Below are positions 3,840 through 35,996 of a stretch of 64,000 bases of DNA, piece by piece. Below the pieces are notes generated by a model. The model had not been told where the DNA came from and searched no databases. It worked only from the letters and a program-made list of their open reading frames with translations. Position numbers and translations under genes: made by a program. The stretch is from Candidatus Azophilus sp. GTDB taxonomy: Bacteria; Pseudomonadota; Gammaproteobacteria; Pseudomonadales; Azotimanducaceae. The stretch lies in assembly GCA_965221755.1 (NCBI GenBank), contig OZ244921.1, positions 2,706,334-2,770,333 of the forward strand, read 5' to 3'. The first letter of the stretch is position 1; the number at the start of each line of letters is the position of its first letter.

Positions 3840-3873
3840 ATCCTTGGTTTCCGCGCTTGAGCAAAACGCGCTA

Positions 3874-4120: not shown

Positions 4121-4189
4121 GGCGTTCGGAAAGCGCGGCGGAAAATGCCTTTCAGGCGGCTGGCGGGGCGCGCGCCTCCAGCGAGACCA

Positions 4190-4400: not shown

Positions 4401-4496
4401 GATTCCTATTTCTGCTTAGCGGCTGTCTGGAGGTGTGAAAACGACTATTGATATTCTTGAAGGAGCTGCAAGTGGTGTGCAAAAGATATCCACAAT

Positions 4497-6587: not shown

Positions 6588-6655
6588 GTGGGCAATCGCC
6601 CAGTCAATAGCGTAACGCTGCCTCTGTGGTTGAGTATAAGGTAATCGCGTACCGC

Positions 6656-7639
6656 TCAGGCGGTGGCAACTCGGTTGGCGAACACAACGATTGCCGGGTT
6701 CTTCCCGCTATTTCCGGCCTTTGATTCTTCGGCAAGATTTTCAGCCTTTTCGGCAAGCGCCTTGGCAAAATTGCGTATCGCATTTCTGCCTTTCGCTACA
6801 TCCACTTGCTCCACCGAAGCCGGTTTCCGCGCCAACTGACGGCGGCCCAGCAGATGTTCCGGATCCTTGGATTGTGCCGAATCATCCTTGAAAACGGAAT
6901 CCAAGCCCGCAGGCGGTGTCGCTGAGAGAACCACCGGATGAAAACTGCGGCGCAGTGGAATTCTGCTCCAATTGTGACAGCGTTGAATTGCTTGGAGCGT
7001 CTCAAGAAATGGCTGGGCGCAGTGGGCTTCATCGAGCAAAATCAAACTGTCATTGGCTGTCAGTCCGGCAAAAACAGGCCACATGCCCGGCCCGCGCCCA
7101 TAGGTGCGAAACAACAGGCGGGAGCCGATTTGATCAACCGTGGAGGCGATTACGGCGGGTTGAAGCGGACTGCGCGCCCAAGAATCGGAACGGTAGCTTG
7201 CGCCCCGTAAAGTATGGACGGTAAGCGGCTGCTCATCTTGCCAAGATCCGTCCGAATCACCATACGCAATCAAACGCAAAGCGTCGGCCACATCCTTGAG
7301 AATGCCGGTTTTGGCATTCGCCAATTTCCTAGCCAGCCGCTTGGCGCGAGCATAGGCTTCATCAACGATGATGCGCCGATCCACAACAAAGAAGATGCGG
7401 CGAGGTGCTGTTATGGCACACCCATCCGACAGTCTCATGGCTTGAGCCGCCAGCGCGAAAACAGCTACGTCGATACAGGCTGTTTTTCCAGCGGCGGTAG
7501 GCAGCGCTATCGCCTCCGGCCATGGCTGACCTATATTTTCCATAACCCGCTCGGCCAATGCTTGCTGCCATGCGAACGGTCGGAAACTCCAAAGGGCTTG
7601 GAAATAATCGCCGAACCGGACTGCCGCAAGCTCAGCCAT
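6656..7639 (-). pseudogene. cas3: cas3 N-terminal helicase part (RecA1 only)
   Basis: LPTAAGKTACIDV (motif I), LILLDEAHCAQPF (DEAH) and VVLSATPP (motif III). The ORF stops right after VVFANRVATA, where RecA2 should begin. No motif VI is found downstream. Probable start is ATG 7639 (MAELAAVRF). Confidence 0.65.
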
Positions 7640-8156
7640 TGGTTTGCTCGCCCTGGTCCATCGGCAAAAAAAGGCCGTAGCCACGGAATCGTCCGGCACC
7701 AATCATGACCGGGCCAGTCACAGGCTGGTCGAAAACCAGCACAGCGTGGCTATGGTTGCGGATGCCGCCATCGAACTTTCGGGTCATGCGCGGAAACTCA
7801 CGCGCATGCGGGACACCCTCCACAAGCGAAACAGGATGCAGCACAACCTCATTCGGCGCTGGCAGTCCAATGCGTTCGCACGCTTTTTTGATATCTTCGG
7901 CGGCGCGTTGCCAGCGGTCGTTGCCGTCGTAATGGCGATCAAGGACGACGGGTGTCACGCTTGCCCAGGTTTTTGACGGGCGCGTCCAGCGTCCCGGACG
8001 CAAGGCCAGGGATGGTCGCTCGCGTGTTTCCTGCTCAACTTCGCATTCCAACCATTCGCCATCGAACAATCGATGCGTCGCCGTGAGGCTGGCCTCGCCA
8101 TACAGGAACCGGGACAGGCAATCGGCGGCTGCCTGTTCACTCGTCTCGCGGGGCAA
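7632..8156 (-). pseudogene. type I-U Csb2 (Cas5/6u) C-terminal fragment
   Basis: WASVTPVVLDRH...HAVLVFDQPVTGPVMIGAGRFRGYGLFLPMD is the characteristic Csb2 C-terminus. Only ~174 codons remain, and tRNA-Arg lies 94 nt upstream, leaving no room for the N-terminal ~300 aa. Confidence 0.55.
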
Positions 8157-8249: not shown

Positions 8250-8326
8250 TGGTACGCCCGGAAGGGCTCGAACCTTCAACCCTCTGCTTAGAAGGCAGAT
8301 GCTCTATCCCGTTGAGCTACGGGCGC
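8250..8326 (-). tRNA. tRNA-Arg (anticodon TCT)
   Basis: Reverse complement: GCGCCCGTAGCTCAACGGGATAGAGCATCTGCCTTCTAAGCAGAGGGTTGAAGGTTCGAGCCCTTCCGGGCGTACCA. It folds as a cloverleaf with anticodon loop CTTCTAA, T-loop TTCGAGC and an encoded CCA. Confidence 0.93.
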
Positions 8327-8436
8327 CGTGACGACCAATCAAAGCAATAACAGACAAAGGGCTGCAAACCAACCCTGGGCGCAGGCCTCCGGCCCACCGC
8401 CAACCGGCCCGGCTTGGGAGGCCGGCCCACCGCATC

Positions 8437-8513
<77 letters not shown>

Positions 8514-10275: not shown

Positions 10276-10328
10276 CGGAATAAGAGCGAATAAGCTCGGA
10301 ATAAGAGCGAATAAGCTCGGAATAAGAC
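10276..10328. repeat. 21-bp tandem repeat x2.5 (five GAATAAG cores at ~10.5-bp spacing)
   Basis: CGGAATAAGAGCGAATAAGCT at 10276 and 10297, with a partial copy at 10318. It lies 14 nt downstream of the stop of the last operon gene. Confidence 0.9.
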
Positions 10329-10341
10329 GGGCGACCGTCGT

Positions 10342-11736
10342 TTACGTGGCCTTCCAGCGCGCTCCCCGGCCATGTCCGGTCGCTCGCGCCAGACCGGTGG
10401 CCCTCAGGGCAGCCAAACACCGGCGAAGCTGAGAATCGCTTAGCTGCCCATCCAGCAGCGATCGAATTTCGCGCAATGCCAACCCACCACCGGAGTGACG
10501 CAGCAACGCCAAAACCTCATCTTGCCGCTCTGAGAGTCCGGCACCAGCTTGCCGAACGAACGACGCATCCTTGCGTCGAAACCGGACCGTTACGCAGTCG
10601 CCACGCTCCTCGATTTCAGGGCGCGGCAAACCCATTGAGGTTGCCACGTTAGCCATCCTGATCGTGCCCCTGCCCCATTCCTCGATGATGCCCCGCCGGT
10701 AGAAGGTGCGGGCGATCAGAGGATTCCATGGCCTTGATTCGTGCGGCCCGAACAGGTCATCCGGAGTCAACCCGAAGTGCAGCGGGCCGGTGGAGGTCAC
10801 TTCCAGGCGGTCGTCGTAGATGGCGAGACCGATGGAGCCGCCGCCCAGGGCGTAGTCGCGGTGGCACAGCGCATTCGCGAGCGCCTCGCGTGTCGCCAGT
10901 GGCGGGTATAGCGGCTCGTCTATGCGCTGCATGCGGCCCGACTCGAAGCGGCTCGCAATCGGCAACGTATCGCGGAGAAAACGCTCGGCGCTCGCAAGGA
11001 GCACGAAAGCGTTGCCATTGAATTGCCGGTTGTCCAGGAATTCGGATCGGTCAAGCCCACGAAAGCGCGCCACGCGAAGCAGGCATTGAGGCATATCGGA
11101 TTCGAGACGCTCGCGCTTGCCGAACAATGCTGCCGCAGCCCTGAACAGGACTCCGCCGCGCATCAGCCCCAAGCCACGCAGCAAATCCTCCGGTTCCCGG
11201 GTTCCTGGCTCGTCGAGGCGGCCGATGCGAACGGCCTCCGCGATGGTGTTGCGAATCTCGGCAAGATCGAGATCGTCCACGGTCCATCCGACGGCCGGCT
11301 GGTTTTCCCAGCGCTGCTCGGCGTGCATGCGCTCGAAGAGCATGCGGTTGTGCTCAGCGGACGACATGCTCCGGGTCGTGTTGCCGACACGCCGATAGGC
11401 GACATTTCGGTACTGGTAAGGCGGCGAAGACCCGGGGGCTATGCGAACCGCGATCACCTCGCGATTCGCGGACACTTGAATGCGTTCGATCTCCGGAAAC
11501 GCGGGTGGGTCGATGCGTTGGAACTCGGCGCTGACATCCTCGATCGTGCGATCGCCGATACTTTGGCCGACAACGGCTCCTTGAGGAGTAACGCCGAACA
11601 GCACATGGCCGCCGCGCTGGTTGAGCATCGCGCACACGGTCGCCGCGGCTTCACGTCGAGTTCCGGTAGTGGCCTTGAACTCCAGCGTTTCGGACTCGCC
11701 CAATGCGACAAGCGCCTTGATTTGATCGAGCGTCAT
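10342..11736 (-). CDS. AlbA_2 (Schlafen-like) / HATPase_c_4-type ATP-binding protein with C-terminal wHTH
   Basis: N-terminus LVALGESETLEFKATTGTRREAAATVCAMLNQRGGHVLFGV is the classic AlbA_2 'divergent AAA' start. The C-terminus LSERQDEVLALLRHSGGGLALREIRSLL is wHTH-like. The ATG overlaps the upstream stop (ATGA, 11733-11736). Confidence 0.75.
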   Translation of the reverse strand: MTLDQIKALVALGESETLEFKATTGTRREAAATVCAMLNQRGGHVLFGVTPQGAVVGQSIGDRTIEDVSAEFQRIDPPAFPEIERIQVSANREVIAVRIAPGSSPPYQYRNVAYRRVGNTTRSMSSAEHNRMLFERMHAEQRWENQPAVGWTVDDLDLAEIRNTIAEAVRIGRLDEPGTREPEDLLRGLGLMRGGVLFRAAAALFGKRERLESDMPQCLLRVARFRGLDRSEFLDNRQFNGNAFVLLASAERFLRDTLPIASRFESGRMQRIDEPLYPPLATREALANALCHRDYALGGGSIGLAIYDDRLEVTSTGPLHFGLTPDDLFGPHESRPWNPLIARTFYRRGIIEEWGRGTIRMANVATSMGLPRPEIEERGDCVTVRFRRKDASFVRQAGAGLSERQDEVLALLRHSGGGLALREIRSLLDGQLSDSQLRRCLAALRATGLARATGHGRGARWKAT

Positions 11737-12407
11737 TCGTGCGACTCTGCCGTGAGATCCGGGGCGACTCCCTGCTCCAGCGTGTCGAACGCCCGAAGCA
11801 CGAGGCGCTTAGTGCGGTACTCGCCGAAATTTTTCAATTCGTATTGCTTCAGCGATGGGAACGACGAGCCTGGCGGAGTCGCGTCCAGAATCCATTCCAA
11901 GTCAGGGCGGCTGAGCCCGTACATGTGGGCAAAGATCGCGTCGAGTTCCGATTGCAGGCAATGGCGGCGTTGCTCGTTCCATGGGAAAGGCGGTCCCTCG
12001 TAACCGATGTCTCGGGCAAATCCGGTTAACTCCTCCGATGCGTAGGATAATTGTAACGTCCGGGGAACGATCAACTCGACGTAGGGCCTGCCGCAGGCGC
12101 TGTTTTTCAGATACTCGTCCGGCGGCAATACGGGCATCTGTTTGAGAATGAAGACACTCATGTGGACGCCGCCGACGGAGAACCGAGCCGCCCAATCGAG
12201 CGGGAGGCTGTTCATGTTTGTCGAAACGAGTGCAGATGCGATAGTGCGACCGTGCTCGTAGTCGATTATCGGAGCGGTATGCCCGATGCCGCTCCGGGGC
12301 AGGTTGCCCGTGACAAGAGTTCGTTCGTTCGTGGCATTGGTAATGTCGCGAAACGCTTGAATCCATGTCGGGGAATCGCTTCGCGCGAGTGGTCGGCTGG
12401 CGATCAT
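11733..12407 (-). CDS. stand-alone paralogue of the methyltransferase C-terminal module
   Basis: The 224-aa protein aligns by eye to residues ~1198-1390 of the 1403-aa MTase. Shared blocks: ERTL(V/I)T, PRSG, GG(V/T), I(L/I)KQ(M/L)P(V/I)L, IVPR(T/V)L(Q/E)L(S/T)Y, PFPW, GE(Y/F)RTKR. There are ATGA overlaps at both ends. Confidence 0.75.
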   Translation of the reverse strand: MIASRPLARSDSPTWIQAFRDITNATNERTLVTGNLPRSGIGHTAPIIDYEHGRTIASALVSTNMNSLPLDWAARFSVGGVHMSVFILKQMPVLPPDEYLKNSACGRPYVELIVPRTLQLSYASEELTGFARDIGYEGPPFPWNEQRRHCLQSELDAIFAHMYGLSRPDLEWILDATPPGSSFPSLKQYELKNFGEYRTKRLVLRAFDTLEQGVAPDLTAESHE

Positions 12408-15400
12408 AATGAGAGCCCCGGTGACCGGGTCAGGCGGAGTGGGTATGCATTGCCGGTCATGCCGGCAGCCATCATCTCGTCGTATATCTCCAGGATCTCG
12501 CGTTTGGTACGAAATTCGCCGTAGTCACGCTCGTCATCCCGTTTCACGATGGGAAAGGTCTCCAGGATGTAGTCCACATCGTCGCGGTCCATGCCATAGA
12601 GGCGGAACAACGCTGCGTCGATCTCGCACCTCAACCGAAACCGGCGGTCCTCGCTCCACGGAAACGGTTGCTCCTCGTACCCGAGATGCTCCGCGAAGTC
12701 CTGCAACTCCGACGAAGTGTAGGTAAGCTCAAGCACGCGCGGCACAATGAAATCCGCATACATGCAACCCCATCCCATGTCGTCCTGGAACCGTGCCGGG
12801 TGAAGAATGGGAAGCTGCTTGATGATGAAATAGCTGAGATCGGTGCCGCCAACGGCGGAGCGGGCCGCGAAATCGACCACGAACGAGTTGAGGAGCGCGA
12901 CGATGAGGGGTGCCGCTTCATCGGCCGCAACGCGGAGAAGTGGCGCGCGGTCGCTCATTCCAGACCTCGGGACGGGCGCGGTGATGAGTGTTCTTTCATC
13001 CGTAGCTCTTGCTGTTTTCCGGAACGGTACAATCGCCCGGCGAGCGACACGACCGCACCTTTGCTGCCGAGCCCTGTGGCTGGCATGAGGGAGGAAATCA
13101 GGGTTCTCCGGTCGGTTGATCTCGTAATCAGCCTCAACGCGATCTCCCATCCTCGAGCCCGCAGAGCGCGTTGCGGGCCAGTTTGGCGAGCCGATCGAGT
13201 ATAATTGCTCGGCTCGGCTCGGCTCGGCTCGGCTCGGCTCGGCTCGGCTCGGCTCGGCTCGGCTCGGCTCGGCTATCAATTGTATGGTCGTTCCGGACTT
13301 GTCAAGTCTTTCCGCCACTTTTTCTTCCGGAACCCAGTATCGCGGGATGGCGACCGACTCTGGATCCGCCTTCTCTTCCTTGGTCATCGGTCGGGCCTTG
13401 CCGTTTCGGATGTCGTGCTCGGATACGCCGTCGAACGTGGCGAAGCGGTGGTCGTACTGATGAAACAGCTTGGCTTCGTAGAGCGGCAGATAGCGTTCCT
13501 GTCCTCGCACAAATACGTTGCCGTCCAATTTCCACCCGCTGTCGGCAAGTTCCTGGCGGGTTTTGAATAGCCCCGAATCGTTGGACATATCGAACATTCT
13601 GGAGAACTTCACGCCCCATGGATTCTCTTCCGCCTGCGACCCGCTGCCATCCCTCCAGAACACGCCGGCACGCTCGTACATCTTGCGGGCGATATCCATG
13701 TCGCGCCGGGTGCGGAAGATCGGGCAAGTGCGCGTGTTGGGCTTGAACAGCGAGAAATCATCCACCGACAGCGTGAATCGCCGCTCCGCCTCCTTCAATT
13801 GCTCCGCCTGGTGCAGGAAGAAGGCGAACTCGGCCTGCGGCGCCGGACGGTCCTTGCCGCTCAGCGTGAGCAGGCAGAATTTGATACGACTATCGATGCC
13901 CGGAAAAACCTTCTCCCGGTTCTCGAAATCGAACAGGCTGACGAGCCGCTGGCCGCTGACGATATGGTCGAAGTACGCCTTGGTGGAATGGTCGGTCGCG
14001 ATTCCGGTCGGCACGATCAGTCCGGCGCGGCCTCTTGGATTGAGTAGCTGAAGAAAAGTCTCCGCGAAGACGGCGTAGGTGTTCAGATCGCCCACGCCGG
14101 TGAGCGGAAACCGCCCTCCGGTGCGCGCGAACTGGCTGGCCGCCTCGGCTTCGCGCTTTGCGGTCTGGAACTCCTGGAAGAGCGCCATTTCGGCGGGCGA
14201 TGCGCCATCGCGGTCAAGGTGCCGAATCAGACGGTCCCGCGCGGCCTTGTTGGGCGCGGCCGCAATCTCGGGAGACCGCGAGGCGAAAAACTCCTGTTCC
14301 TGTAGCTTGATGCGCTCCCACGGCGGATTGCCGAGCACGGCATCGAAACCACCGTCCTGCATGATTTCGGCGAAGGCGAGATGCCAGTGGTGGAATCGGT
14401 GGCGGTCCTGCAGGTCCCGCGCAAGCTCATGGACGCCGCGGCGCGGGGGCAGTTCGTCCGCCAGCCGATCCAGATCCTGGGTTTGGGACACGATCTCCAG
14501 CGTTTCCCGCCTCTTCGGCGCGAACCATGCGCCCACGAACAGATCGGCGCGTAGCGTCTCCCGGGCGTGCGTCGCATCGTGCAGGCCCGCCGTCCAGGCT
14601 GCGCGCTTGCGTTCCACGTCGTCGAGCGTGTCTTCGGGCATGGCATCCAGATCCAGACCCGCGACTGCAACTTCCAGCACGGCGTCCTGATCGAACAGGC
14701 CGTGCTGATCCGGTTGGCGGTTGCGTTTCTTGAGATCCAGGCACGCCGCCTTGTCGTCGCCGGTCAGAGGTTTGTAGGCGTCCGCGGGAATGCCGTTCAC
14801 CATGATCTCGGGATCGAGCACGCCGACCAGGCTGTCGCCCTGAAGAATGTGGGAATCGAGGAAAGTGAGCGGTTTGCCGGGCTCCACCGTTTCCATCCAG
14901 AGCGCGGTCTTGCAGAGCTCGACGGCAAGCGGATTGCGGTCCACCCCGTAGATGCAGTGCTGCGCCACCTCGCGCAGGGCATGCTGGCGCGCAGTCTCGT
15001 CGGCGGTGTCGGCGCCGGATTCGATGCGGGCGATTTCGGCGGCGAGACGGCGCGCCGCCGCCAACAGGAAATGTCCCGATCCGCAGGCCGGATCAACGAT
15101 CCTCAAGCCCAGAATGGCGCCGCGCGGATCCTTCGGGTTGGCGGCCAGCACTTGGTCGATAACCGGATCGAGCGTGGACCGGACGAGTTCACCGACCAAG
15201 GCGGGCGGCGTGTAGTAGGAGCCGGTCAGCTTGCGCTCCGATCCCCTGACCCTCTCCTCGTTATCGTCACCGACAAAGGCGAAAACCCAGGGCGAAGCAT
15301 CCACGTCGATGACAGGGTGAAGTTCCAGAAGGCTCTCGTAAACAGACCCCAGTTCCTCGGTGCCCATGTCCCGGTAGTTGACGCGGGCGAGCGCGTTCCC

Positions 15401-16615
15401 GGAGCGGAAGAATGTCAGAGTGCGGATCGCTTCGAGCAAGTGTTCGTTGGCGATGGCCGCCGCATCGAGGTCGGGGCATTGGTCGCTGCGGAACAGACCG
15501 TCGAGAGCGGGAAGGCCGAGGCCCGGAGCGCCGCCGGCGAGTGCGCCGAAGGTGATCTCAAGACCCTGCCAGAGATCGCCGTTGCGGTCGTAGTGACGCC
15601 GCCGAAGTGCCCGCTCACGCAGACGGGAAAGGGCGTAGCCTTGCGAGTAGATGGTGCGCTGCTCGATGGTCGCCTCAGCCGTGTGCAGCAGATCGCGTTC
15701 CTCGGCGGTGAACAGGAAGAGCAGGCGGTAAACGAGCCGAAGAAGCTGCTGGAAGTAACGCTCGGGTGGGAGTGAACCGTTTTCGAGGGCTTCCCGAAGT
15801 TGAACGTTGGCCGGATGCCGCAGGAACCCGTTGCCGAGCCGTCGCAAGGTGTGGGTGACGCCGTCGCGGAGATTTTCCCGGACACGCTCGCCGGTCTCGT
15901 GCGCCTTGGCCCGCCAGGATTCGATGATGCAGCTCGCCGGCCTGCCATCGGACGGTTTCAGGCGGCTCGCATGAGCGGTGAGCCAGAGCGCGGCGAAGTC
16001 CGGGTAGAGCTGCTCCGCGAACATCAGGCCGAGATCGGCTTCGATGTAGGAGGGCCGCGTGAGGCTGGCGTTGTCGCGCAGCAGCCGGAGTTTCGTGCCG
16101 TTGGAAACCATGCCCCAGAGTGCAGTGTCCTCGGCGTTGAGATACTCCTGCATCGTGCCGTGCGCGGCCTGCCGACGGCCGTCCTGGCCGAGTCGGAGGT
16201 CGGCCTTGTCGAGATCGAAATCGTGCGTCACCAGCAGCAAGGGCACGGCGCCGTTGCATGCGCTGTGGGTCAGTTTGAAAACTCGCTCGTCCAGCGTCGC
16301 GCTTCCGGCAGGGGCAAGATCGTCGTACCCGAGCAGCAAACGCAGGAACAGCACGAGCCATTCGTCGACGCCAACCGTGGACGCGAGAAGATCGGTTCGC
16401 GGGCGACGCTCGGCATAGCGGCCGTAAAGATCGTTGCCGATGCGCCAGTACCGCGCCAGCTCCTCCTTGATCGCGAGCGATTGGGACAACCCGTAGTCGG
16501 CGCCGGTCTGGCGCGGCGCCTTCAAGGCAACCACGGTCTGAAGAAACTCGGGCGGCAGGATGCCGCCTTCGATCTTCAGCGAGGTGAACCCACAGCTCTT
16601 TCGGGTGCCCGCCAT
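12404..16615 (-). CDS. large gamma-class N6-adenine DNA methyltransferase (Eco57I/DrmMI-like)
   Basis: 1403 aa. YYTPPALV, motif I VDPACGSGHFLL (508-519), motif IV GNPPWERIK (762-770). Sits between the SNF2 gene and the CTD paralogue. Confidence 0.85.
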   Translation of the reverse strand: MAGTRKSCGFTSLKIEGGILPPEFLQTVVALKAPRQTGADYGLSQSLAIKEELARYWRIGNDLYGRYAERRPRTDLLASTVGVDEWLVLFLRLLLGYDDLAPAGSATLDERVFKLTHSACNGAVPLLLVTHDFDLDKADLRLGQDGRRQAAHGTMQEYLNAEDTALWGMVSNGTKLRLLRDNASLTRPSYIEADLGLMFAEQLYPDFAALWLTAHASRLKPSDGRPASCIIESWRAKAHETGERVRENLRDGVTHTLRRLGNGFLRHPANVQLREALENGSLPPERYFQQLLRLVYRLLFLFTAEERDLLHTAEATIEQRTIYSQGYALSRLRERALRRRHYDRNGDLWQGLEITFGALAGGAPGLGLPALDGLFRSDQCPDLDAAAIANEHLLEAIRTLTFFRSGNALARVNYRDMGTEELGSVYESLLELHPVIDVDASPWVFAFVGDDNEERVRGSERKLTGSYYTPPALVGELVRSTLDPVIDQVLAANPKDPRGAILGLRIVDPACGSGHFLLAAARRLAAEIARIESGADTADETARQHALREVAQHCIYGVDRNPLAVELCKTALWMETVEPGKPLTFLDSHILQGDSLVGVLDPEIMVNGIPADAYKPLTGDDKAACLDLKKRNRQPDQHGLFDQDAVLEVAVAGLDLDAMPEDTLDDVERKRAAWTAGLHDATHARETLRADLFVGAWFAPKRRETLEIVSQTQDLDRLADELPPRRGVHELARDLQDRHRFHHWHLAFAEIMQDGGFDAVLGNPPWERIKLQEQEFFASRSPEIAAAPNKAARDRLIRHLDRDGASPAEMALFQEFQTAKREAEAASQFARTGGRFPLTGVGDLNTYAVFAETFLQLLNPRGRAGLIVPTGIATDHSTKAYFDHIVSGQRLVSLFDFENREKVFPGIDSRIKFCLLTLSGKDRPAPQAEFAFFLHQAEQLKEAERRFTLSVDDFSLFKPNTRTCPIFRTRRDMDIARKMYERAGVFWRDGSGSQAEENPWGVKFSRMFDMSNDSGLFKTRQELADSGWKLDGNVFVRGQERYLPLYEAKLFHQYDHRFATFDGVSEHDIRNGKARPMTKEEKADPESVAIPRYWVPEEKVAERLDKSGTTIQLIAEPSRAEPSRAEPSRAEPSRAEQLYSIGSPNWPATRSAGSRMGDRVEADYEINRPENPDFLPHASHRARQQRCGRVARRAIVPFRKTARATDERTLITAPVPRSGMSDRAPLLRVAADEAAPLIVALLNSFVVDFAARSAVGGTDLSYFIIKQLPILHPARFQDDMGWGCMYADFIVPRVLELTYTSSELQDFAEHLGYEEQPFPWSEDRRFRLRCEIDAALFRLYGMDRDDVDYILETFPIVKRDDERDYGEFRTKREILEIYDEMMAAGMTGNAYPLRLTRSPGLSL
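13207..13274. repeat. pentanucleotide SSR (GCTCG)13+GCT inside the methyltransferase ORF
   Basis: Counted directly: 13 full 5-nt units from 13207 plus 3 nt. It is translated as (AEPSR)4AE at residues 1115-1136. Confidence 0.95.
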
Positions 16616-16617
16616 GC

Positions 16618-19494
16618 TCAGAGATTCGCCATGGGCATGAACACGTAGACGCCGATCTTGTCGATCGGCAGCGCCGGGACGACGTTGTAGCGCAATCCCC
16701 GCGCATCGCTGGCCTCGCGGATGCGGCGATGGTCGGAGAGCAGGCGCGCGGCCCGCTCATGGACAACACGGTCGAAAGTATCTTCCAGGGCAGGCAACGA
16801 GTCGAGCGCCTGGCGAATGAGGTGGGATTTTTGACCATCCGGCATGTTGCGGCCCGGTTCCAGCGCCAGCAGAGACAGGGCGTCCTCATCGGCCAGGAGC
16901 TCGGTCGCATCGGCGCCCCGGACGGCGAGGGCAAGGCATTCCTCGGCGAGAAGCGACCGCAAGGGGGCGTAGCGGCCGTCGCTCGCGCGGCGTTCGATCT
17001 CGATCTGGCTGCGCAGCCGCAACAGGTAGAGCACCGTGCGGGTATCGACGCCCCGCGTGAAGATGGCGCTGCATCGGGCGCCGATTTCCGGCGAGCCGGC
17101 GTCGAGCGCCTGCTCGACCACATGATCCGCAAGCGTAGCGACCAGCGGATGGGCGCGGTGGATGTAAGCCGCTCCGGCTGGCGCCGGCTGCTTGAAGGCG
17201 ACGTTGGCTGCCGCTGTGAATCGGATCGCTTCGAGGCGGTCCTGAAGCGGCTTGGGCAGGTAGGCCGTCGGCAGCCGGAAGTAGCCGTCTCGCGTATCAA
17301 GCGGTGCGCCGAGACGCGCGGCGGACAGGCGCACGAAACGGGCGACATCGTCCGGTCCGCCCAGCACGGAGACGGCCTTGCGCCATTCGGGTAGCACGTC
17401 GTCCGGTGTCAGGCGCCGCTGCGCGAAGACCGTGCGCGTCATCCGGTTGGTCGCCGTTTGCCAGGCATCGTCCACCTCGGCCTCGGTGTCGCCGAAATCG
17501 AACACGGTCTGCGCGGCCTGGGAGTGGGAGCCGCCGTGAAGCAGGACGGCCTTCATGATGGCATCCACCACCTTGTTGTTGTCGGCCGGTAGCGGAACGG
17601 AAACGCCCAGTTCCTTGCGGATCTTCTCGGCCTTGCGGAGGATCACGCGCAGCACCGCGCCGTCCACCGGATTGTTCTCGCCGTAGAGCATCAGCGCCCG
17701 AACCGTGCGGGAGGCTTGCCCGAAACGGTCGGCCCGGCCCTCGCGCTGCTCGTGGCGGGTGGGGTTCCAGGTCAGGTCGTAATGGACCACCGCGTTGAAG
17801 TGGTTCTGCAGGTTGACGCCTTCCGAGAGGCAGTCGGTAGCAACGAGTACGGGTGCGATTTCTTTCTCGAGATCCGAAAACGCCCCGACCCGTTCCTCAC
17901 GCTGGTCGGGCGTGAGTTCTCCGGTCACCACGGCGACATGGGCCTGACCGGGACTCAAGGCCCCTTTGAGTTGCTCGCCGACGTAATGCGCGGTGGCGAT
18001 GTAGCGGCAGAACACGACCGGGCGGAACCCGTCGCGCACCAACTGCGCAACCTCGTCGATGAGCGTCTTGAGCTTGGGATCGTTGCGCGGGCCGCGTAGC
18101 GCGCCCGCGCGGTTGATGAGTGCGCGCAAGGCTTCGGCGTCTTCTGCCCCCTCGACAGTGCCAGCGGGCACGCTCTCCGCCAGCGAGAGCGAATCATCCT
18201 CCGTTTCATCCATGACCGTTTCGGCCGCCGTCCGGTCCAGGCTGTCGAGTTGCGCCTGTTCGGTCTCGCCCTCGGCGGCCTGCAAGCGCGTGCGCAGCGC
18301 CAGTGACGCGGCGGCGGGGCTGGAGGACGCACAGCGCAGCAACGCGAGCGCGGCCCACCAGGACATCCGCTGCTGAAGCCGGGTGCCGCCCTCTGCGCGT
18401 CGGACCATGGTCCGGGCGTAGGCAAGCACATCGTCGAACAGGCGGCCCCATGCGCCGGTCAGCCGGTAGGTCGCCTCGCGGCTTTCGCGAACCGGGAAAC
18501 CGGCATCGTCCTTCCACTCGGCGATGTCGCCGCGGCGGCGCTGCACGAAATGCAGCGCGAGCCGGTCGCGAAGGCGGCGGCGCAGTTCGCCCTCGGGCAT
18601 TTCCGCCAGCTCCACGAACTTCGGGTCCAGCAGGGCCAGCAGGTTGTGAAACGCCGTATCGTCGCCCGAATGCGGCGTGGCCGTGAGGAAGACCATCCCG
18701 CGAAGCGGCTCGCTTTCGGCCAAACCCTTGAGAAGCTGGTAGCGCTGGTGGCGGGTGCTCGTGTTCGCCTGCATGCAGGCGTGGGCCTCGTCCACGATGA
18801 CGAACTCCGGGCAGGCCCGCAGGAAGTCGCCGCGCCTGCGGTCGGACTTGATGTAGTCGAGTGACACGACCGTGAAGGGATGAACCTCGAACAGCGACTC
18901 GTCCGGGCGCAGACCCCGCTCCAGGCGGGTGGCCGTTCCAGTGCGCACGACCTCGGCGTCGATGCCGAACTTCTCCGAGAGTTCCTGCTGCCATTGCTCG
19001 CACAGGTGGGGCGGGCATATGATTGCGAGCCGCTCGATCTCTCCGCGATCGAGGAGTTCCCGGGCGATCAGCCCGGCCTCGATGGTCTTGCCGATGCCGA
19101 CATCGTCGGCGACGAGCAGCCGCACCGTGTCGAGCTTCAGCGCCATGAGCAGCGGCACGAGTTGATAGGCGCGCGGTTCGACATTGAGGTTGCCGAAGCT
19201 CCGGAACGGCCCGGCGCCGGCGCGTAGCTTGAGGCGCAGCGCGTCCCGCAGGAGAAGCGCGGCGTCGTGCGGACCCGGTTTTTCGGGATCCGGCAGATCG
19301 AACGTGGCGGGCGCGGGCGCTTCGGGTTCGAGTGGAAGATAGATGAGGGCGGCGTCATCCTCGGCGCCGCCGAGCGGCCGGAGCTTCAGGAGGTTTTCGC
19401 GCGTCTCCGGCAGCACGACCCATTCCCGGTCGCGCGCCCTGACCAAATCCCCGGGTTTGAACGCGACAGCAGTTTCCGTTGCCATGTCCGGCAT
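16618..19494 (-). CDS. SNF2-family ATPase/helicase (DrmD-like)
   Basis: 958 aa. YQLVPL...LLVADDVGIGKTIEAG (motif I), VIVDEAHAC (DEAH), VATDCLSEGVNLQ, HEQREGRADRFGQ (motif VI). Confidence 0.85.
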   Translation of the reverse strand: MPDMATETAVAFKPGDLVRARDREWVVLPETRENLLKLRPLGGAEDDAALIYLPLEPEAPAPATFDLPDPEKPGPHDAALLLRDALRLKLRAGAGPFRSFGNLNVEPRAYQLVPLLMALKLDTVRLLVADDVGIGKTIEAGLIARELLDRGEIERLAIICPPHLCEQWQQELSEKFGIDAEVVRTGTATRLERGLRPDESLFEVHPFTVVSLDYIKSDRRRGDFLRACPEFVIVDEAHACMQANTSTRHQRYQLLKGLAESEPLRGMVFLTATPHSGDDTAFHNLLALLDPKFVELAEMPEGELRRRLRDRLALHFVQRRRGDIAEWKDDAGFPVRESREATYRLTGAWGRLFDDVLAYARTMVRRAEGGTRLQQRMSWWAALALLRCASSSPAAASLALRTRLQAAEGETEQAQLDSLDRTAAETVMDETEDDSLSLAESVPAGTVEGAEDAEALRALINRAGALRGPRNDPKLKTLIDEVAQLVRDGFRPVVFCRYIATAHYVGEQLKGALSPGQAHVAVVTGELTPDQREERVGAFSDLEKEIAPVLVATDCLSEGVNLQNHFNAVVHYDLTWNPTRHEQREGRADRFGQASRTVRALMLYGENNPVDGAVLRVILRKAEKIRKELGVSVPLPADNNKVVDAIMKAVLLHGGSHSQAAQTVFDFGDTEAEVDDAWQTATNRMTRTVFAQRRLTPDDVLPEWRKAVSVLGGPDDVARFVRLSAARLGAPLDTRDGYFRLPTAYLPKPLQDRLEAIRFTAAANVAFKQPAPAGAAYIHRAHPLVATLADHVVEQALDAGSPEIGARCSAIFTRGVDTRTVLYLLRLRSQIEIERRASDGRYAPLRSLLAEECLALAVRGADATELLADEDALSLLALEPGRNMPDGQKSHLIRQALDSLPALEDTFDRVVHERAARLLSDHRRIREASDARGLRYNVVPALPIDKIGVYVFMPMANL

Positions 19495-22400
19495 CAGCCG
19501 TTTCCGTTCATCGATGGGGTACCCGATCCGAACACCCAGGCATACCGGTCGACGATGCCCGGCCAGGATGAGCGGTCGGCCGGGAAGCGCACCACGGTGT
19601 AGCCGGCGTCGACGAGGCGGCGGTCGATAGCTTCGTCGGCGCTGTCCCGGACCGCCCCTTGATGTTGTGGACCGTCAACGTAAACCAGGATCTGCGAGTC
19701 GGTGTAGGCGAAATCGGGGCGGGTCGCGTAGATTTCGAGCAACGGCTGAGCCTTGTCCGGCAAGCGATAGCCATTCGACTCGATGAAACGCAGCCACGCC
19801 TTCTCCAGGGAGGACGATGAAACGTTCAACAGTTCGTTGTAGCTGTCGCCGGCGGCAACTTCGTGCTCCAGACTCTTGCGCGAACTGCGCGTGAACCGGC
19901 AAAGCAGTTCGAGCATCTCGCCGTCTTGCCGGTCGATAAGGGGATGCTCCGGCTGGTTGTAGTAGCTCAACAGGCAGCGGTAGCAGCCGGCTTCGCAATC
20001 GGTGTCGAGATTCTCAAGATCGTCCGCTCCGGACCACTCGCCCGACTTCGAGGAGTAATGGCAAACTTCCAGAGCGCGGCGGGCAATGCGCGCCAAGGCC
20101 TCGGGGTCGGTGGCCAGACGCGTCAGGACGCCCGCGCCTCCCTCGGCGGCTTCGTAAAGCAGGACCGTCGCACGGTTGTCCCTGTCGGGCAGGGGCTCGG
20201 CGGCCAGTTCGGCCTCCTCCAGTTGAAACTCCTGCTCGATGCCCCGCTTGAGAGCGTACTGCAGAGAGACCATGGCGGTTTCGGACAAATTGACCGCTGG
20301 ACGCACGACGAGGACGTTCCGTGTGTCCTCGACGAAGGGTGTGATGCGCTCGACCGTCTTGCCCTCGCGCACGGCGTCGTCTTCGGCATCGGTCGGCGCC
20401 TGGGCGTCCTTGCTCCATTCGCCGGTGTTGGTGTCCACGCTGAAGCCGTAAACGGTTTTCTCCCTGCGCCGCCGCCATCCCAGGTTGATGCGCCACAGCA
20501 TGGCCGCCGGGCCATAGCGGAGTTCCATCAGCGTCTCGCCGCCCTCCTCGATGGCGATGCCCTCGGCCCGCGCCCGGCCATTTTCCTCGCTGAACCGGAG
20601 GGTTGTAATCATTTCGTAGCCTTGTCGCTGGCGTTCCTCCTCGTCCGAGGTGATGCGGTTCGCGCGCTGGGTCGAGACCTGCTCGATACGATACAGATTC
20701 GGAACGATGCGCCCGCCGTCGAGACGGGCGCCGCAACTGACGCAGCGCTCGTAGTCCTTCTGATCCCCGAAATGCCCGTAACCGCAAGCGGGACAGAGGC
20801 GGGCCGCCTGTACGGGGAGCTTGGCGGATGCCCTCACTCCGCCCTCGTCGCGCACCGAGAGAATGGCGCGCCGCACCCGATAGGTGCTGCCTTCGTGATA
20901 GATGATGGACTGGGGCCCGAACTCGGTGAGTCCGAGGAACCGCGGACGGCTCAGGAAGGCGTCGCGAGCCACCTTCTCGCGGCGGCCGGGAACGAAGGCC
21001 ATCAGCGGCAGGCGCGGGAAGTTGTATCCCGGCAGAAACCCCTCGGCGGCCAAATAGCGGTAGGTGTAGAAGTCCGAGTTCATGGTCGGCCTGCTGTCGA
21101 GGAGCAGGTTCTGCTGCGTGTACGCCTCGTCGTAACGCGCCTTGGCCTCCCTGCGTTCCCGTTCGGTGGCGGCGGCGTTGTTGACGACATCGTTTGCGAA
21201 CTTCATCTGGTTCGAGGTCGCGCGGTAGAGGGAACGCCATCGGTCGAACGATTTGTGGAAGCGGCGTTCGGCGGAGTTCATCGTGCCATCGAGCCACGTT
21301 TCCGTGTGCCAGGGCGCGGCCTGCCCGGAGAGGTCGGATGTGAGAGTGGACAGAATGCGCTTCCCTCGCCGCCCGGCCGCGGCCACGGCCCGGTCGGCGC
21401 CCACTTGCAGTGCGACCTCCTCATGCACGGGAAGGTTGTCGAGCCTGTCCATGTCGAGCACTTCGCGCACGGAATAACCGAGCTTTACGCCCGTCTCCGC
21501 GAGCCAGACGGCCTGTAGGTGGCTGCGGATCAGGTCCTCGTTGGCGAGATCGATGTTGGGCGGATTGACCGCGCCGGCCACCATGCGTGTCGGATCGGAG
21601 AAGAAGTACTGGTCGTGCGGCGACCTCGCCGCGCAATAGGTGACCACCAGCGCCGGCTGGCCGCTGCGGCCCGCCCGTCCGCTGCGTTGGGCGTAGTTCG
21701 CCGGAGTCGGCGGCACGTTGCGCATGTACACCGTGTTGAGCGTGGAGATGTCGACGCCGAGTTCCATGGTCGGCGAACAGAAAAGTATAGGCAGCCCGGC
21801 GGGCTCGACCTGGCCGTCGACGACGCGCTCGCCCTCCAGTCCCTTGCGGAAACGCGCTTCCCGCACCTCGCGCACGTCGGAGTCGACCTGGGCGGTGTGT
21901 TCGCGCGCCTCAAGCTGGTGCAGCAGGCGGTCGTCGCTGACCAGGAGACCCGCGACGTTGCGGTAGAGGCTGCGGAAAAACGCATTGGTCGGCGTGCTGT
22001 CTTCGGAAGCCTCGTCGGCCAGACGCCATTCGAGCACCGAGCCGTCGATGCGGTAGCCGGTGCGTTCGGCGTCGAGGCCCGCGGGTTCGACGTAGCCGTG
22101 GGTCGTCAGCACGGCAAGTACATCGTCGATGAGATCGTTGTACACGCCCTCGTCGAACCTGGACGGATAGCACGGATTTTCCGCTCCCCAGAACGCCTGG
22201 GACTTGATCTTGCGGCCGAATGCGGAGCGGTGGGAGACATGGAGGGTGCGGAACTCGTCCCGGCGGCCGCCGCGGCTCGGTCTGGGGACCATGAAGGCAT
22301 GCGTGAAAAGGCGTTCGTCCTCCGACAGGCCCCAGGGTTCCCTCAACTCGTTGAAGCTTCGATTGCGGATCCGCTCCTGAAAGTTCGGATCGAGATAGAT

Positions 22401-24761
22401 CGTCTTGATGCAGAGCGCCCGGCGCATGCGCTCCAAAAGATCGTTAACGAGAGCGAAGCGGCGTTCGGGCGAAATGGAGCCGAGCAAGGGGTGGCGTTTT
22501 CGCCATTCCTCCTCGTCCCGGCAGCAGTCCATGAGATCCCGGTATTCGATCTTCAGCAGCCGCAACTGCTCGAGATTCGGGTTGGTGATGCGCCAGCCGC
22601 GTTGCAGATCGAAATACAGCCGATACCCGAGCACGTCGCGCAGCGCCTTCAGCGTGTTCTGGGCCTTGACCCCCTTGGCCTGGGGGTTGGATGCGTAGTC
22701 CGCCGGATCCAGACGCAGGCAATCGAGGACGCGTTGCGTGAGCATGTCGTCGGTCAGGCGCGCTCCGTCGGCGGTCGGGATGGACGCGAGCAGGGCGCCA
22801 CGCAAGAGCAGAATCTGTATGAAGTCATTGAAATGCCCGGCCTGGAGGCTGGCGTCCTGCCGGTTGTCGGTGAACGCAAGGAGCTTTTTCGTCCGCTCGT
22901 CGAGGTCGGCTCCGATGAGATGCTTCAGCGAGGACAGCGCCAATACGGTGGTTGCCGAACTCCGGCCCTCGCTGGACAGGCCGGAGAGCTTGGTGAGCTC
23001 GCTGCGAACGCTGCCGTCGAAATAGGCGTCGCAGTCCGGATTCAGGCAAAAGCGGAACGGTCCAGGAATGAACCGCGCCGGCAAACCGTCCGCGGCCACG
23101 CCGCCCGTGGTGTCGACGTGGACGGAGAGCGGGCTGTACTTGCGGAAATGGGGCTTGATCCGGGCCTGGTCGTCGCGAAACTCCAGCCACTCCTCCGGAT
23201 ATCGGGAATCAGATTCGGTCGAATCGAACACGCCGGAAGGGTCGGGCATCAGGTAGCCGTACTGGATTTCGTCGTCGTCGTTGGAGCGTTCCGACAGGTC
23301 GCGCGGTTTAAATTCCTGCGGTTGCTTACCGGCCAGTTTCGCCCAAACGGGCAGGTATTCCTGGCCGCACCCCCTGCAAAAGCTAAGCGAGTACAGCGGG
23401 CGCTGGCGGTCGCCGGGCTTGAATTGCTGGCCGTGCAACGTGATGTACCGTTCGCCTGGCGCTTCGAGAGTCGAATACGCGTTCCAGGCGCCGCTGATGA
23501 ACTGATGCAGGCGGAACGCGAAGAAACTCGCGCCGCGCTCGTTACGGCTGCGGTGCGCGGCCAGCAGGAAGCTCGCGAGGTAGTTTCGGCACAGCCCGTC
23601 ATCAAGGCCGCTCTCGTTCGCCAAACGGCTCGAAGCGTCCAGCAGGGTCAGGGGCCGCGAAATCCGCACAATCCTGCCGTCGCGTTCCTCGAGGCCGAGA
23701 TTGCGCTCCACCCAAGCGGCTGCGGCGTGTTCCGCAAGATGCTCATGGGTGGGATCGTCCGGGACACCTTGTTCGATGGCGGTGCGCAGCTCGGACCCGG
23801 TCGGAGATGGACTGGAGCTGGTCACCGGGCTCAGCGTCTCGGTAACAACGTTCCCGGGATCGACGGAAACGCCGAACAAGCGGCTCGCCACGCACGCGAT
23901 GGTCGTGTTCCGCTCTTCAAGAGAGCCTTCGGTGGCCATGGTTGCGGAGGTGCCTATGCACAGCAGACGGTCGTTGAAACGCTCGCGCACCCGCCGCACC
24001 AGCATGGCGACATCGGCGCCCTGGCGCCCGCGATACGTATGCAGCTCGTCCAGAACCAGGAAGCGAAGCCCCGCCGCGTGTTCGCGAACCGCCTTGTCGG
24101 TTTCGTGGAAGCGCGTCATGAGCAATTCCAGCATGACGTAGTTGGTCAGCAGGATGTCGGGCGGGTTCTTGGCGATGCGCTCGCGCTCCTCGTTCGATTC
24201 CTGTCCGGTATAGCGCGCAAAAGTAACCGGCTCCCCGCCTTCGCCGTAGCCGAGGCGCAAATATCGCTCCAGCTCTTCGCGCTGGCTGTTGCACAGGGCG
24301 TTCATCGGATAGACGACGATGGCGGTGATGCCCTTGCGGGCGTCTCCCGCCCGCTTGGCGCGCAGCACGTCATCGACGATGGGAATGAAATAGGCGAGCG
24401 ACTTGCCGGAACCGGTGCCGGTGGTGAGCACGTAGCTTTCGCCGCGTTGGGCGATCTCTATCGCGTCGGTCTGGTGGCGATGCAAGCGAAGCCGTTTGCC
24501 AAACGTGTCGGCGGGATGCTTGAGCCGGAAGATTTTCGCGCACTCCTCATCGAGCACGCCGTCGGCGACGAGGTCGTCGATGTATCCGCCCGGCTTGAAA
24601 TTGGGATTCAACTGGATGAGTGGAGCCGGCCAGAAACGACCGGCGTCGTATTCCGAGTCCACTGTCCGGGAGATGTCCTCGGAGCGGATTCGGGTAAAGC
24701 TTCGGGAGAATCGTGCGTACTCGGCGATGAGTTCCTCGCGAAACGCGAATACGTCCATCAC
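19494..24761 (-). CDS. DExH helicase fused to a DUF1998 Zn-ribbon module and a C-terminal DUF559/Vsr-like nuclease domain (DrmA+DrmB-like / DruE-like)
   Basis: 1755 aa. GTGSGKS (115-121), DELH (238-241), SAT (272-274), [10 protein letters not shown] (1025-1034). DUF1998 signature: [21 protein letters not shown] (1323-1343), [12 protein letters not shown] (1589-1600). DUF559-like part: [29 protein letters not shown] (1681-1726). AAGGA SD before GTG/ATG 24761/24758. Confidence 0.85.
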
Positions 24762-24768
24762 TTTTCCT

Positions 24769-25557
24769 TCATCGGCACGGCCTCAAAGCATACGTCATAC
24801 TGGAAGCTCCCGAAATACGAGGAAATCCCATTGTCAACCTGAGCGTTCCGGGCAGCGCGATGCGCTTGCCGGACAACCTTGGAATGACTAGATTCGGATC
24901 AAAGTGATTCGGAGACGATTCCGCGACATTAAGGGTGTCGGCTGCACCGTAACCCTGCCATCGTCCAACTGTCGGTCGCTGGCTTCCCGGAGGGCCGTTG
25001 GGGAAACGATCCGCTAATTCGCCTTGCAGTTGCTTCAGGCGCCGTCTTTGCGCCTTAGTACCTCGATAGTGACCTTCGAAATCTCGTGGGCGCTTCGCCG
25101 CAATAACTCGTTCTCGTATTTGGTCAGCATTCGGGGAGCGGGCGAGATACCGAGCTTCCGATTGAGTAAGTCGATCGAAGGGGTGGCCGAAGTAATCCCT
25201 CCACCATTGTTCAAGGGCTTTTCCATGGTTCTCCCTCAACTCTTTGAGTTGTTCATCACGAAGTGCAAGTCTAGCGGAATAGGGCTTCCCTGTTAACACC
25301 ACCGCCGCTGCCACGAATCCTCCTTGATTGACAATGTGCCCGCGCAAATTAGCAAGAGTGCCACCCTGTCCAACGAAGTCATCAATTAGGACATAGGTTT
25401 TGCCCCGCTCCACCACCCCTGTGAACAATGCTTGACGGGCAAGTCGGCCATATCCGTCTGCTCCGGTATGCGAGACGATATTGCTTTGCCAAATGTCAAC
25501 CGCATAGTCGCTACCTGACTGCTCGCTAATGATCCGAGCCAAGGCCGAAGGGAGCAT
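24769..25557 (-). pseudogene. phosphoribosyltransferase-fold domain protein, probably 5'-frameshifted and truncated
   Basis: PRPP-loop-like YVLIDDFVGQGGTLANL. The N-terminal continuation lies in another frame (tail of ORF 25526..26236: ...LAAVHAHESNLN / MLPSALARIISEQ). The last ~80 codons run through an AT-richer stretch. The stop TGA (24769-24771) abuts the helicase SD. Confidence 0.5.
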
Positions 25558-25740
25558 TCAAATTCGATTCATGGGCATGCACGGCGGCGAGTGTGGGGCT
25601 CCCTGCACTGGCATGCGCTTGAAAGAACCGCAATACTCGCGTGATGTCAGCGGGAACCAACATGCTTTTCAGCATTGTTGCCGCAGCATCGGCATCACCA
25701 GCTTTTGATACGGAGTATAGCGGGTCATGCTTTCGATGGA

Positions 25741-26236
25741 GCGCATGTGCTCGAACATGCGCGTGCGGGAGCCGAGCCGTTCCCTGGCCCGCCGCCACCA
25801 GGGTGACGGCGAGCACTTGGCGGAAGTGCTCGGTTCCGCCGTCGTTGCGCTGGCGCGTGGAGCGGTTCGGGCAGTGGATCTTGCGGGAGCGGAAGCATTC
25901 GGTGCCGTCGAGGGCGCCGGCGGCGTCGAGTTCCGTCACGAGGCCGGTGAACAGCGCGTTGAAGTGCGTCGGCGGAGCCCCGTCGAGCGTCCGCCGGACA
26001 GGGTCGCCGCTGGGGATGCGGCGTAGGCCGAACAGGGTTTGGGCGTTCGAGTTGCCCTGCCGGACGGCGAGCGCGCGCTGATGGGACGGGAAGGACGGCG
26101 ACCGCATGGGGAACACCGACAGCGCCGCCAGACCGATGTGCGCCATGGCGTGCTGCCGGTTGCGGCCGCAGCGGGGTTCCGGCAGTTCGGCCAGATGGCC
26201 GCGCAGCCGGTCGGGATGGCGCTCTAGCCGGCGCAT
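25741..26236 (-). pseudogene. DDE transposase N-terminal fragment (ISKra4-like by recollection)
   Basis: LPEPRCGRNRQHAMAHIGLAALSVFPMRSPSFPSHQRAL...NAQTLFGLRRIPSGDPVRRTLDG..DGTECFRSRKIHCPNRSTRQRNDGGTEHF. There is no DDE catalytic core. It is fused in frame to unrelated sequence after about residue 165. Confidence 0.45.
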
Positions 26237-35595: not shown

Positions 35596-35598
35596 CAG

Positions 35599-35996
35599 CG
35601 TCCCGCCTTCGACTGGACCGCTGGCATGCGCGCCCCGAACTCACGGCGGCGATCGATCCCCGGCGTTTTCGGGCGCCGGGTTGCGCAGCAACTCGAACGC
35701 TTCGCCGCCGGCGCTGCGCCATTCGTCAGCTCGCGCTCCGAAGCGTCCCGCCTTCGACTGGACCGCTGGCATGCGCGCCCCGAACTCACGGCGGCGATCG
35801 ATCCCCGGCGTTTTCGGGCGCCGAGTTGCGCAGCAACTCGAACGCTTCGCCGCCGGCGCTGCGCCATTCGTCAGCTCGCGCTCCGAAGCGTCCCGCCTTC
35901 GACTGGACCGCTGGCATGCGCGCCCCGAACTCACGGCGGCGATCGATCCCCGGCGTTTTCGGGCGCCGAGTTGCGCAGCAACTCGAACGCTTCGCC
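35599..35996. repeat. 145-bp tandem repeat, 2.7 near-identical copies
   Basis: Unit starts at 35599, 35744 and 35889. Copies 1 and 2 differ at one position that I could see. The unit contains the lptE 3' end and stop plus the lptE-holA spacer. Confidence 0.9.

Follow-up and report, generated by a model that had tools for sequence, protein, structure and literature searches.

The ARMADA ("disARM-related") defense systems were defined by Bell et al. (2025; PMC12458937) and include a YprA helicase with a C-terminal Vsr nuclease. In ARMADA type I, the YprA homologue is followed by a BrxHII-like helicase and then by a PglX-like methyltransferase. The type I helicase has BrxA-like, zinc beta-barrel and MarR-like insertions after its first RecA lobe (RecA1) and a helix-turn-helix-like domain with a helical finger between RecA2 and the OB fold, and its OB-CON-DUF1998 canopy holds one zinc module, whereas two are present in type II and in Druantia (Bell et al., 2025). 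ARMADA type II of Escherichia coli, organized as ArmA-ArmB-ArmC-ArmD with a RelE-GajB helicase, contains a homologous SNF2 ATPase, a PglX-like methyltransferase and a YprA helicase with Vsr. The ARMADA helicases group with those of Druantia, apart from the DISARM/Dpd branch (Bell et al., 2025). Here, a stretch of 64,000 nucleotides of Candidatus Azophilus sp. (contig OZ244921.1; hereafter the window, in whose numbering all positions are given) was analyzed. The open reading frame (ORF) at 19494–24761 on the reverse strand in all likelihood encodes the ArmC-like YprA-family helicase-nuclease of an ARMADA type I system, co-transcribed with a SNF2/BrxHII-like ATPase and a PglX-like methyltransferase.

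The ORF, which had been noticed in a preliminary description made from the sequence, was found to be present and uninterrupted, with 1755 codons counted from a GTG at 24761, and its product matched the Pfam domains DEAD, Helicase_C, MZB and DUF559. Since an ATG at 24758 directly adjoins this GTG and the nearest homologues are 1754 amino acids long, the true start is probably the ATG, giving a protein of 1754 amino acids; the numbering from the GTG is used below. The start codon of the gene for the ArmA-like SNF2 (BrxHII/RapA-like) ATPase (16618–19494, reverse strand; 958 amino acids; Pfam SNF2-rel_dom and Helicase_C) shares one base with the helicase stop codon, and the gene for the ArmB-like, PglX/DrmMI-like N6-adenine methyltransferase (12404–16615, reverse strand; 1403 amino acids) lies 2 nucleotides further. 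A scan of one genome per species yielded 79 related loci (L001–L079), and wherever the sequence reached far enough past the helicase, tblastn placed the genes for the SNF2 ATPase and the methyltransferase directly downstream of it in essentially every locus. Besides this operon order, the window showed the fused C-terminal Vsr-type domain, the single zinc module and the helical finger of ARMADA type I. Table S1 of Bell et al. (PMC12458937) includes, as an "ARMADA Type I helicase", the Magnetococcus marinus MC-1 protein ABK44516.1 (Mmc1_2015); it and the window protein are 60% identical end to end, and the MC-1 locus has the helicase, SNF2 and methyltransferase genes in the same order. The link to Table S1 was made through this protein because none of the contig accessions of the related loci was found in the portion of the table compared. 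Like the window protein, the MC-1 helicase is about 1750 amino acids long and has DUF1998, one OB zinc module, the finger and the Vsr tail. The accessory genes differ, with a BrxR-like regulator upstream and a 326-amino-acid and a DUF3800 gene downstream in MC-1, and a Schlafen AlbA_2 gene and a duplicated methyltransferase C-terminal domain in the window; a frameshifting repeat in the methyltransferase gene is found in the clade of the window and is missing from MC-1. ARMADA type II was excluded, as no UvrD-like or RelE-like ORF occurs in the operon or its flanks. In addition, the helicase gene comes first in the window, and type II ArmC has two OB zinc modules along with additional EEP and Vsr domains, compared to one zinc module in the window protein.

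The motif and cysteine positions given in the preliminary description for RecA1, RecA2 and DUF1998 were all reproduced by script. The RecA1 lobe (residues 95–276; 23934–24479, reverse strand; Pfam DEAD, 3.8e-25) contains GTGSGKS at 115–121, DELH at 238–241 and SAT at 272–274. It is followed by an inter-lobe insertion of 660 residues (approximately 277–940; 21942–23933, reverse strand), which harbors the cysteine pairs C462/C465 and C572/C577 and the first RecA2 strand (motif stretch 629–638). The insertion is located where Bell et al. (PMC12458937) describe the BrxA-like, beta-barrel zinc-module and MarR-like insertions; the BrxA-like and MarR-like identities are unconfirmed, since the insertion alone gave no PDB match at E ≤ 1 and no credible Pfam match. 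The RecA2 core (approximately 941–1090; 21492–21941, reverse strand) carries the second RecA2 motif stretch (1025–1034) and was matched by Pfam Helicase_C at 990–1034 (8.5e-9) and, in the profile comparison with PDB sequences, by 9tu7_Y over 953–1074. In an AlphaFold2 model of residues 600–1755 (ma2f49cfe927c, mean pLDDT 76), two 21-residue helices (574–594 and 601–621 in model numbering; residues 1173–1193 and 1200–1220 of the protein; 21102–21245, reverse strand) form a helical hairpin, the finger, between RecA2 and the OB fold. The OB-CON-DUF1998 canopy module (approximately 1235–1600; 19962–21059, reverse strand) contains a motif at 1240–1250, CPACG at 1323–1327, CVSCG at 1340–1344 and the DUF1998 motif at 1589–1600, and Pfam detected the MrfA zinc-binding domain MZB/DUF1998 at 1500–1597 (7.8e-12). 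The residues C1323, C1326, C1340 and C1343 constitute a single four-cysteine zinc module, the sole cysteine cluster in residues 1240–1560, which is invariant in the family; the DUF1998 cysteine cluster is C1589/C1593/C1596.

Structural comparison of the 600–1755 model by Foldseek placed MrfA (6znp_A; 1.1e-5, probability 1.00) and DrmB (7s9v_B; 6.4e-3, probability 0.98) in the top two positions. The family profile, when compared with PDB sequences, matched 9tu7_Y (2.8e-64), 9wae_A (8.8e-41) and then MrfA (2e-28); DrmA was not found among these matches. The match to 9wae_A consists of seven collinear pieces, one of which covers the CxxC in the inter-lobe insertion; the insertion is thus collinear with the CxxC-bearing insertion of 9wae_A, the similarity being weak in this piece. 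The terming of 9tu7 and 9wae as DruE-like is based on length and similarity only, no tie between them and two Druantia preprints having been found. MrfA/YprA (6ZNP) shares with the window protein the core SF2 motor with its OB-CON-DUF1998 canopy, whereas MrfA, at 751 amino acids, has neither the finger nor the nuclease tail of the window protein and also lacks its extra zinc module and the 660 residues inserted between its lobes.

The C-terminal tail (residues approximately 1640–1740; 19542–19844, reverse strand) was identified as a Vsr/DUF559-type PD-(D/E)xK nuclease domain with predicted catalytic residues E1653, D1683, D1696 and H1700. The tail peptide quoted in the preliminary description lies within the looser range given there; its exact span is residues 1681–1726 (19584–19721). 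DUF559 (PF04480) was detected at residues 1683–1729 of the whole protein (2.9e-4; 21.1 bits against a cut-off of 20.6) and, significantly, in the tail alone (E = 1.3e-5, 25.4 bits), in agreement with the DUF559-type tail proposed earlier, and it was matched by 48 of the 48 family tails compared (best 7e-8). The best profile match of the tail was the DUF559 structure 3HRL, with VEADG opposite VYIDG. This alignment puts Tyr1694 opposite the DUF559 Glu, so that the Glu-to-Val substitution claimed in the preliminary description was an error of register, as the Vsr alignment also indicates. All relatives, including those with as little as 37% identity, have Tyr or Phe at the position of Tyr1694. 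The residues E1653, D1683, D1696, G1697, H1700 and D1709 were invariant in two independent family alignments. A search for homologues of the tail only returned 6 short fragments and did not help to trace the domain beyond the family. The motif pattern E...PDF...(aromatic)xDG..H...RF is common to the window domain and Vsr/DUF559 proteins (PF04480; 3HRL; 3R3P); unlike the free Vsr/DUF559 proteins, the window domain is fused to a helicase, and, like Vsr, it has an aromatic residue (Tyr) at the DUF559 Glu position.

The union of a DrmA-like helicase, a DrmB-like DUF1998 module and a Vsr-type nuclease, the last in place of the phospholipase D (PLD) protein DrmC, in one protein that acts as a helicase-nuclease effector had been proposed in the preliminary description, and it agrees with two publications (PMC12458937; PMC13463889) and with the MrfA and DrmB folds. 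DruE and ArmC are described as resembling "fused DrmABC components" (mBio, EDL933; PMC13463889). The novelty of this architecture was overestimated at first, as it was published in 2025–2026; the locus is a new, uncharacterized member of a known family and comes from an uncultured gammaproteobacterium. Exact-sequence look-ups showed that neither the window helicase nor the SNF2 protein is on record.

The affiliation with ARMADA type I was weighed against three other systems. The neighboring genes resemble those of class 1 DISARM (DrmD, DrmMI, DrmA, DrmB, DrmC), which also has a SNF2 ATPase, an adenine methyltransferase and an OB-CON-DUF1998 module: PADLOC matched the SNF2 ATPase to DrmD (4.8e-91) and the methyltransferase to DrmMI (8.7e-75), and the C-terminal half of the helicase is DrmB-like by fold. 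The locus could then be a DISARM variant with DrmA and DrmB fused and a Vsr domain in place of DrmC. This is highly improbable, as the helicase itself matched DruE in PADLOC at 5e-95 and DrmA at 5e-13, and the NCBIfam DrmA models gave it 18 bits (cut-off 950) and 15 bits (cut-off 999); DrmA, which in DISARM carries an N-terminal EVE-like domain and a trigger loop, is also absent from the PDB profile matches noted above. The nearest relatives are the ARMADA and Druantia helicases by PADLOC, NCBIfam and PDB profile, and not DrmA as had been supposed, consistent with the separate branch assigned to DISARM/Dpd by Bell et al. (PMC12458937). Moreover, the NCBIfam DrmD model gave the SNF2 ATPase 345 bits against a cut-off of 610, and no PLD match was found among eight operon and flanking ORFs (Pfam, PADLOC), whereas DISARM has its helicase and DUF1998 on two different proteins and a PLD protein as its nuclease. 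The similarity to DruE in turn raises the reading of a Druantia helicase (type III-B-like or "type IV") that has SNF2 and methyltransferase partners by chance. The DruE lineage is a sister lineage within YprA with similar RecA1-RecA2 insertions and zinc modules; seven DruE models matched the helicase at 5e-95 to 1e-58, led by DruE3, DruE1, DruE2 and DruE4, the best solved relatives are DruE-sized helicases, and some Druantia III-like helicases carry a Vsr domain (Bell et al., PMC12458937). However, these models matched in two to four separate stretches and never end to end, and no homologue of DruH or of DruA-D/F/G was found in the ORFs scanned. DruE III has PLD nuclease domains and a DruH partner, DruE I/II have an inactive Vsr domain and other partners, and none of them has such a SNF2/methyltransferase pair, which is kept across the related loci. 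Together with the listing of the 60%-identical ABK44516.1 under ARMADA type I, this makes the Druantia reading quite improbable. A defense gene of the Hhe kind, in which a helicase joined to a Vsr-like domain acts independently of its neighbors, had been put forward as possibly related in the preliminary description. This idea was dropped because the tail matched no PADLOC model at E ≤ 1; Hhe was also not among the best 25 of 32 PADLOC families for the whole protein, and the helicase is followed by two conserved genes in essentially all loci, the stop and start codons overlapping in the window, leaving this explanation with next to no probability. The placement in ARMADA type I is itself tempered by its basis in gene order, features and 60% identity to one listed member, and by the fact that ARMADA experiments have dealt with type II only.

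Within ARMADA type I, the tail may alternatively be catalytically dead and serve only in DNA binding or as a scaffold, with cleavage, if any, performed by another protein. DruE of Druantia I/II carries inactivated Vsr domains, and Table S2 of Bell et al. (PMC12458937) marks the type I Vsr domain as "active?". The canonical DUF559 Glu is absent, and D1696 is an Asp, as in DUF559, where Vsr has H64. Further, in L064 and L071 (Anaeromyxobacter soli and A. terrae; 43% identity), the three-gene order is kept and the helicase tail is devoid of PDF and DGxxH; it looks like a degenerate or lost nuclease domain, and hence the nuclease does not appear to be universally retained. The structural comparisons also give the Vsr fold weak support. 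Alignment of the tail with E. coli Vsr (MG1655) by hhalign had a probability of 2.3%, and Foldseek with the tail model (pLDDT 77.6) bore out the expected Vsr-like similarity in rank, the Vsr-like homing endonuclease I-Bth0305I (3R3P; 3r3p_B) coming first and FAN1, PspGI and TnsA after it, but not in significance, as the best match had E = 0.14 (probability 0.77) and nothing was found at E ≤ 0.001; the fold assignment therefore rests mainly on sequence profiles. On the other side, E1653, D1683, D1696 and H1700 are kept in relatives down to 37–45% identity. The hhalign alignment, weak as it is, has a sensible register: it paired SLEK with AIEK, RPDF with RPDF and VYVDG with IFTHG, i.e., E1653 with E25, D1683 with D51, Y1694 with F62, V1695 with T63 (backbone) and D1696 with H64; it stops short of H69, to which H1700 was equated by its position in the DGxxH motif. 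E. coli Vsr is an active enzyme with Phe (F62) at the aromatic position, and Tyr1694 at the "missing" Glu position is thus no evidence of inactivation. No nuclease family was matched by the other operon ORFs in the Pfam and PADLOC scans. Considering these observations, the Vsr/DUF559 tail is probably catalytically active and a dead tail is unlikely.

Defense by ARMADA type II is direct and non-abortive, and it depends on each of the four genes as well as on the Walker motifs in ArmA and ArmC and on NPPW in ArmB. DruE is a 3'-5' SF2 helicase-coupled nuclease that is autoinhibited and becomes activated where duplex and single-stranded DNA meet, and MrfA is the source of the translocation model (Bell et al., PMC12458937). 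By analogy, the MrfA-type SF2 motor of the window protein, with RecA1 and RecA2 under the OB-CON-DUF1998 canopy, would load on an invader's single-stranded or junction DNA, probably phage intermediates with single-stranded parts, and translocate, with the canopy, zinc modules and helical finger helping to choose the substrate, and the C-terminal Vsr-type PD-(D/E)xK domain would cut the DNA fed by the motor. The methyltransferase and SNF2 ATPase may provide self/non-self marking and would probably be obligatory partners of the effector. The protein is annotated today as "DEAD/DEAH box helicase" only, and PADLOC 2.0.0 half-labels it as DruE; it would very likely be filed properly as an ARMADA type I effector. 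The conservation of its tail favors an active Vsr-type nuclease, a point that Bell et al. (PMC12458937) had marked as uncertain, and E1653, D1683, D1696 and H1700 are four named candidate catalytic residues.

The helicase family is large: in a word-indexed search, each of the 8000 candidates that were scored lay at E ≤ 1e-10, and the best 120 were full-length and at least 70% identical. Across eight or more phyla of uncultured bacteria, the helicase remains 65–80% identical, with relatives at this level in Pseudomonadota, Acidobacteriota, Chloroflexota, Bacteroidota, Gemmatimonadota, Latescibacterota, Actinomycetota, Desulfobacterota and Binatia. Such protein identity across phyla suggests recent horizontal transfer of the helicase family. 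The names of several metagenome-assembled genomes (COS1_bin, RHO2_bin, Plut_, Candidatus Porisulfidus) are suggestive of sponge or coral holobionts and of a transfer across phyla within one habitat, the habitat being read from these names only. The near-identical locus L001 shows 98% identity. DNA common to the window and L001 is restricted to a five-gene module (10287–24783), with 98.9% identity over 11.6 kb and 89% over 2.1 kb. On one side the homology extends to 22 bp upstream of the helicase start, and on the other to 55 bp beyond the stop of the Schlafen gene; since it stops at the module edges, the module resides in different genomic contexts. A 21-nucleotide tandem repeat (CGGAATAAGAGCGAATAAGCT, 2.5 copies) is located at 10276–10327, on the distal module boundary.

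The methyltransferase gene was found to contain a perfect pentanucleotide repeat, (GCTCG)x13.6, at 13207–13274 (Tandem Repeats Finder: 100% matches, no indels), covering codons approximately 1114–1137 and read as AEPSR repeats. Its position is the exact break of the DNA homology to L001. Perfect repeats of at least 20 nucleotides were present in 40 of the 79 related loci, nearly all at one site, 39–53 nucleotides after the equivalent of residue 1100; the equivalent sites occur in L001–L061. The repeat units differ in sequence among the loci; they measure 1, 4, 5, 7, 8 or 11 nucleotides, no length being divisible by three, and as many as 54 copies occur. The window has 13 copies, and its close relatives L001 and L030 have 32 and at least 21, respectively. 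In repeat-bearing loci (at least 15 nucleotides), the C-terminal domain of the methyltransferase was in frame in 10 and out of frame in 24, as against 25 and 4, respectively, in loci without a repeat (Fisher's exact P = 8.8e-6), and the in-frame fraction of repeat-bearing loci was consistent with one third. Addition or removal of one unit would make 20 of the 24 out-of-frame genes full length again. The copy number in the window yields the 1403-amino-acid methyltransferase, and a change of 1 or 2 units would yield 1158–1221 amino acids.

These observations point to the repeat as a probable phase-variation switch, i.e., a contingency locus. Precedents for phase variation in the literature include type I, type III and type IIG methyltransferases, and Bell et al. 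(2025; PMC12458937) make no mention of a methyltransferase repeat or phase variation. Most repeat-bearing loci combine an intact effector gene with an out-of-frame methyltransferase, which argues that the effector is not unleashed simply by missing methylation. We therefore lean, by a small degree, toward a reading in which ARMADA type I is phase-variable in this clade, the hypermutable repeat switches the conserved C-terminal domain of the methyltransferase in and out of frame, and the nuclease depends on a complete methyltransferase partner, in the manner of BREX and type III restriction. If true, methyltransferase switching would constrain how the helicase-nuclease is kept off the host genome. 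A look-up of the 224-amino-acid ORF described below retrieved nothing but one contig, of low coverage and from the same strain, with an equal repeat count, and there is consequently no within-population variation of the repeat to report.

The methyltransferase, assigned by Pfam (Eco57I, N6_Mtase, MmeI_Mtase) and PADLOC (DrmMI, 9e-75), has its S-adenosylmethionine motif IVDPACGSG at 506 and NPPW at 763. It is followed by an ORF of 224 amino acids (11733–12407, reverse strand), the start of which overlaps the methyltransferase stop (ATGA) and which represents a second copy of the methyltransferase C-terminal domain, with 41% identity to residues 1195–1381 of the fused copy, which lies in 12404–13206 (reverse strand), and a PADLOC match to a type IIG C-terminus (2.4e-11). 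In most related loci, the homologue of this ORF is the C-terminus of the methyltransferase itself. L001 has only the copy of the C-terminal domain that is of the separate-ORF type, placed after a different 347-bp linker, and L003 and L033 have two tandem copies. This arrangement suggests a replacement of cassettes beside the repeat in the methyltransferase gene. The fifth gene encodes an accessory protein of 464 amino acids (10342–11736, reverse strand) with Schlafen AlbA_2 and HATPase_c_4 domains (Pfam 1.6e-20 and 4.4e-19). It is translationally coupled to the operon and occurs in only three of the 79 related loci (L001, L022 and L033), being placed between the SNF2 and methyltransferase genes in L022; it is a sporadic accessory gene.

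With regard to the SNF2 ATPase, PADLOC returned a DpdE-named model (1e-203) ahead of DrmD (5e-91) and BrxHII (7e-47). A Dpd system was considered on account of the first of these and was ruled out by the NCBIfam DpdE model, to which the protein scored 195 bits against a cut-off of 500. The helicase missed the NCBIfam DpdJ model by a wide margin, and in the scanned ORFs, neither a 7-deazaguanine gene nor any Dpd protein gave a match, apart from the helicase-type models DpdE, DpdJ and DpdF.

Upstream of the operon, an ORF of 262 amino acids (24769–25557, reverse strand) ends 8 bp before the helicase start; it had only weak matches (XopC-like, 2.5e-5; PRTase, 0.008), and no counterpart was found in any of the 79 related loci. 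The ORF next to it (25526–26236, reverse strand) has a weak match to a DDE-transposase-associated domain, and the GC content falls to 59% around 24769–26236. This region probably marks the edge of an island. On the other side of the operon, remnants of a type I-G (I-U) CRISPR-Cas system were observed at 3871–8156 (reverse strand), comprising a C-terminal fragment of Cas5/6g (7632–8156), Cas3g in two pieces with the middle missing (6656–7702 and 5432–6301) and Cas8g split in two (4875–5435 and 4497–4841), all on the reverse strand. The remnants lie in a low-GC stretch (55–56%) adjoining tRNA-Arg and tRNA-Pro at 8250–8513. Further tandem arrays, unrelated to the helicase, are located at 35597–35997 (145 nucleotides, 2.8 copies, 99% matches) and 2636–2835 (45 nucleotides, 4.4 copies, 90% matches).

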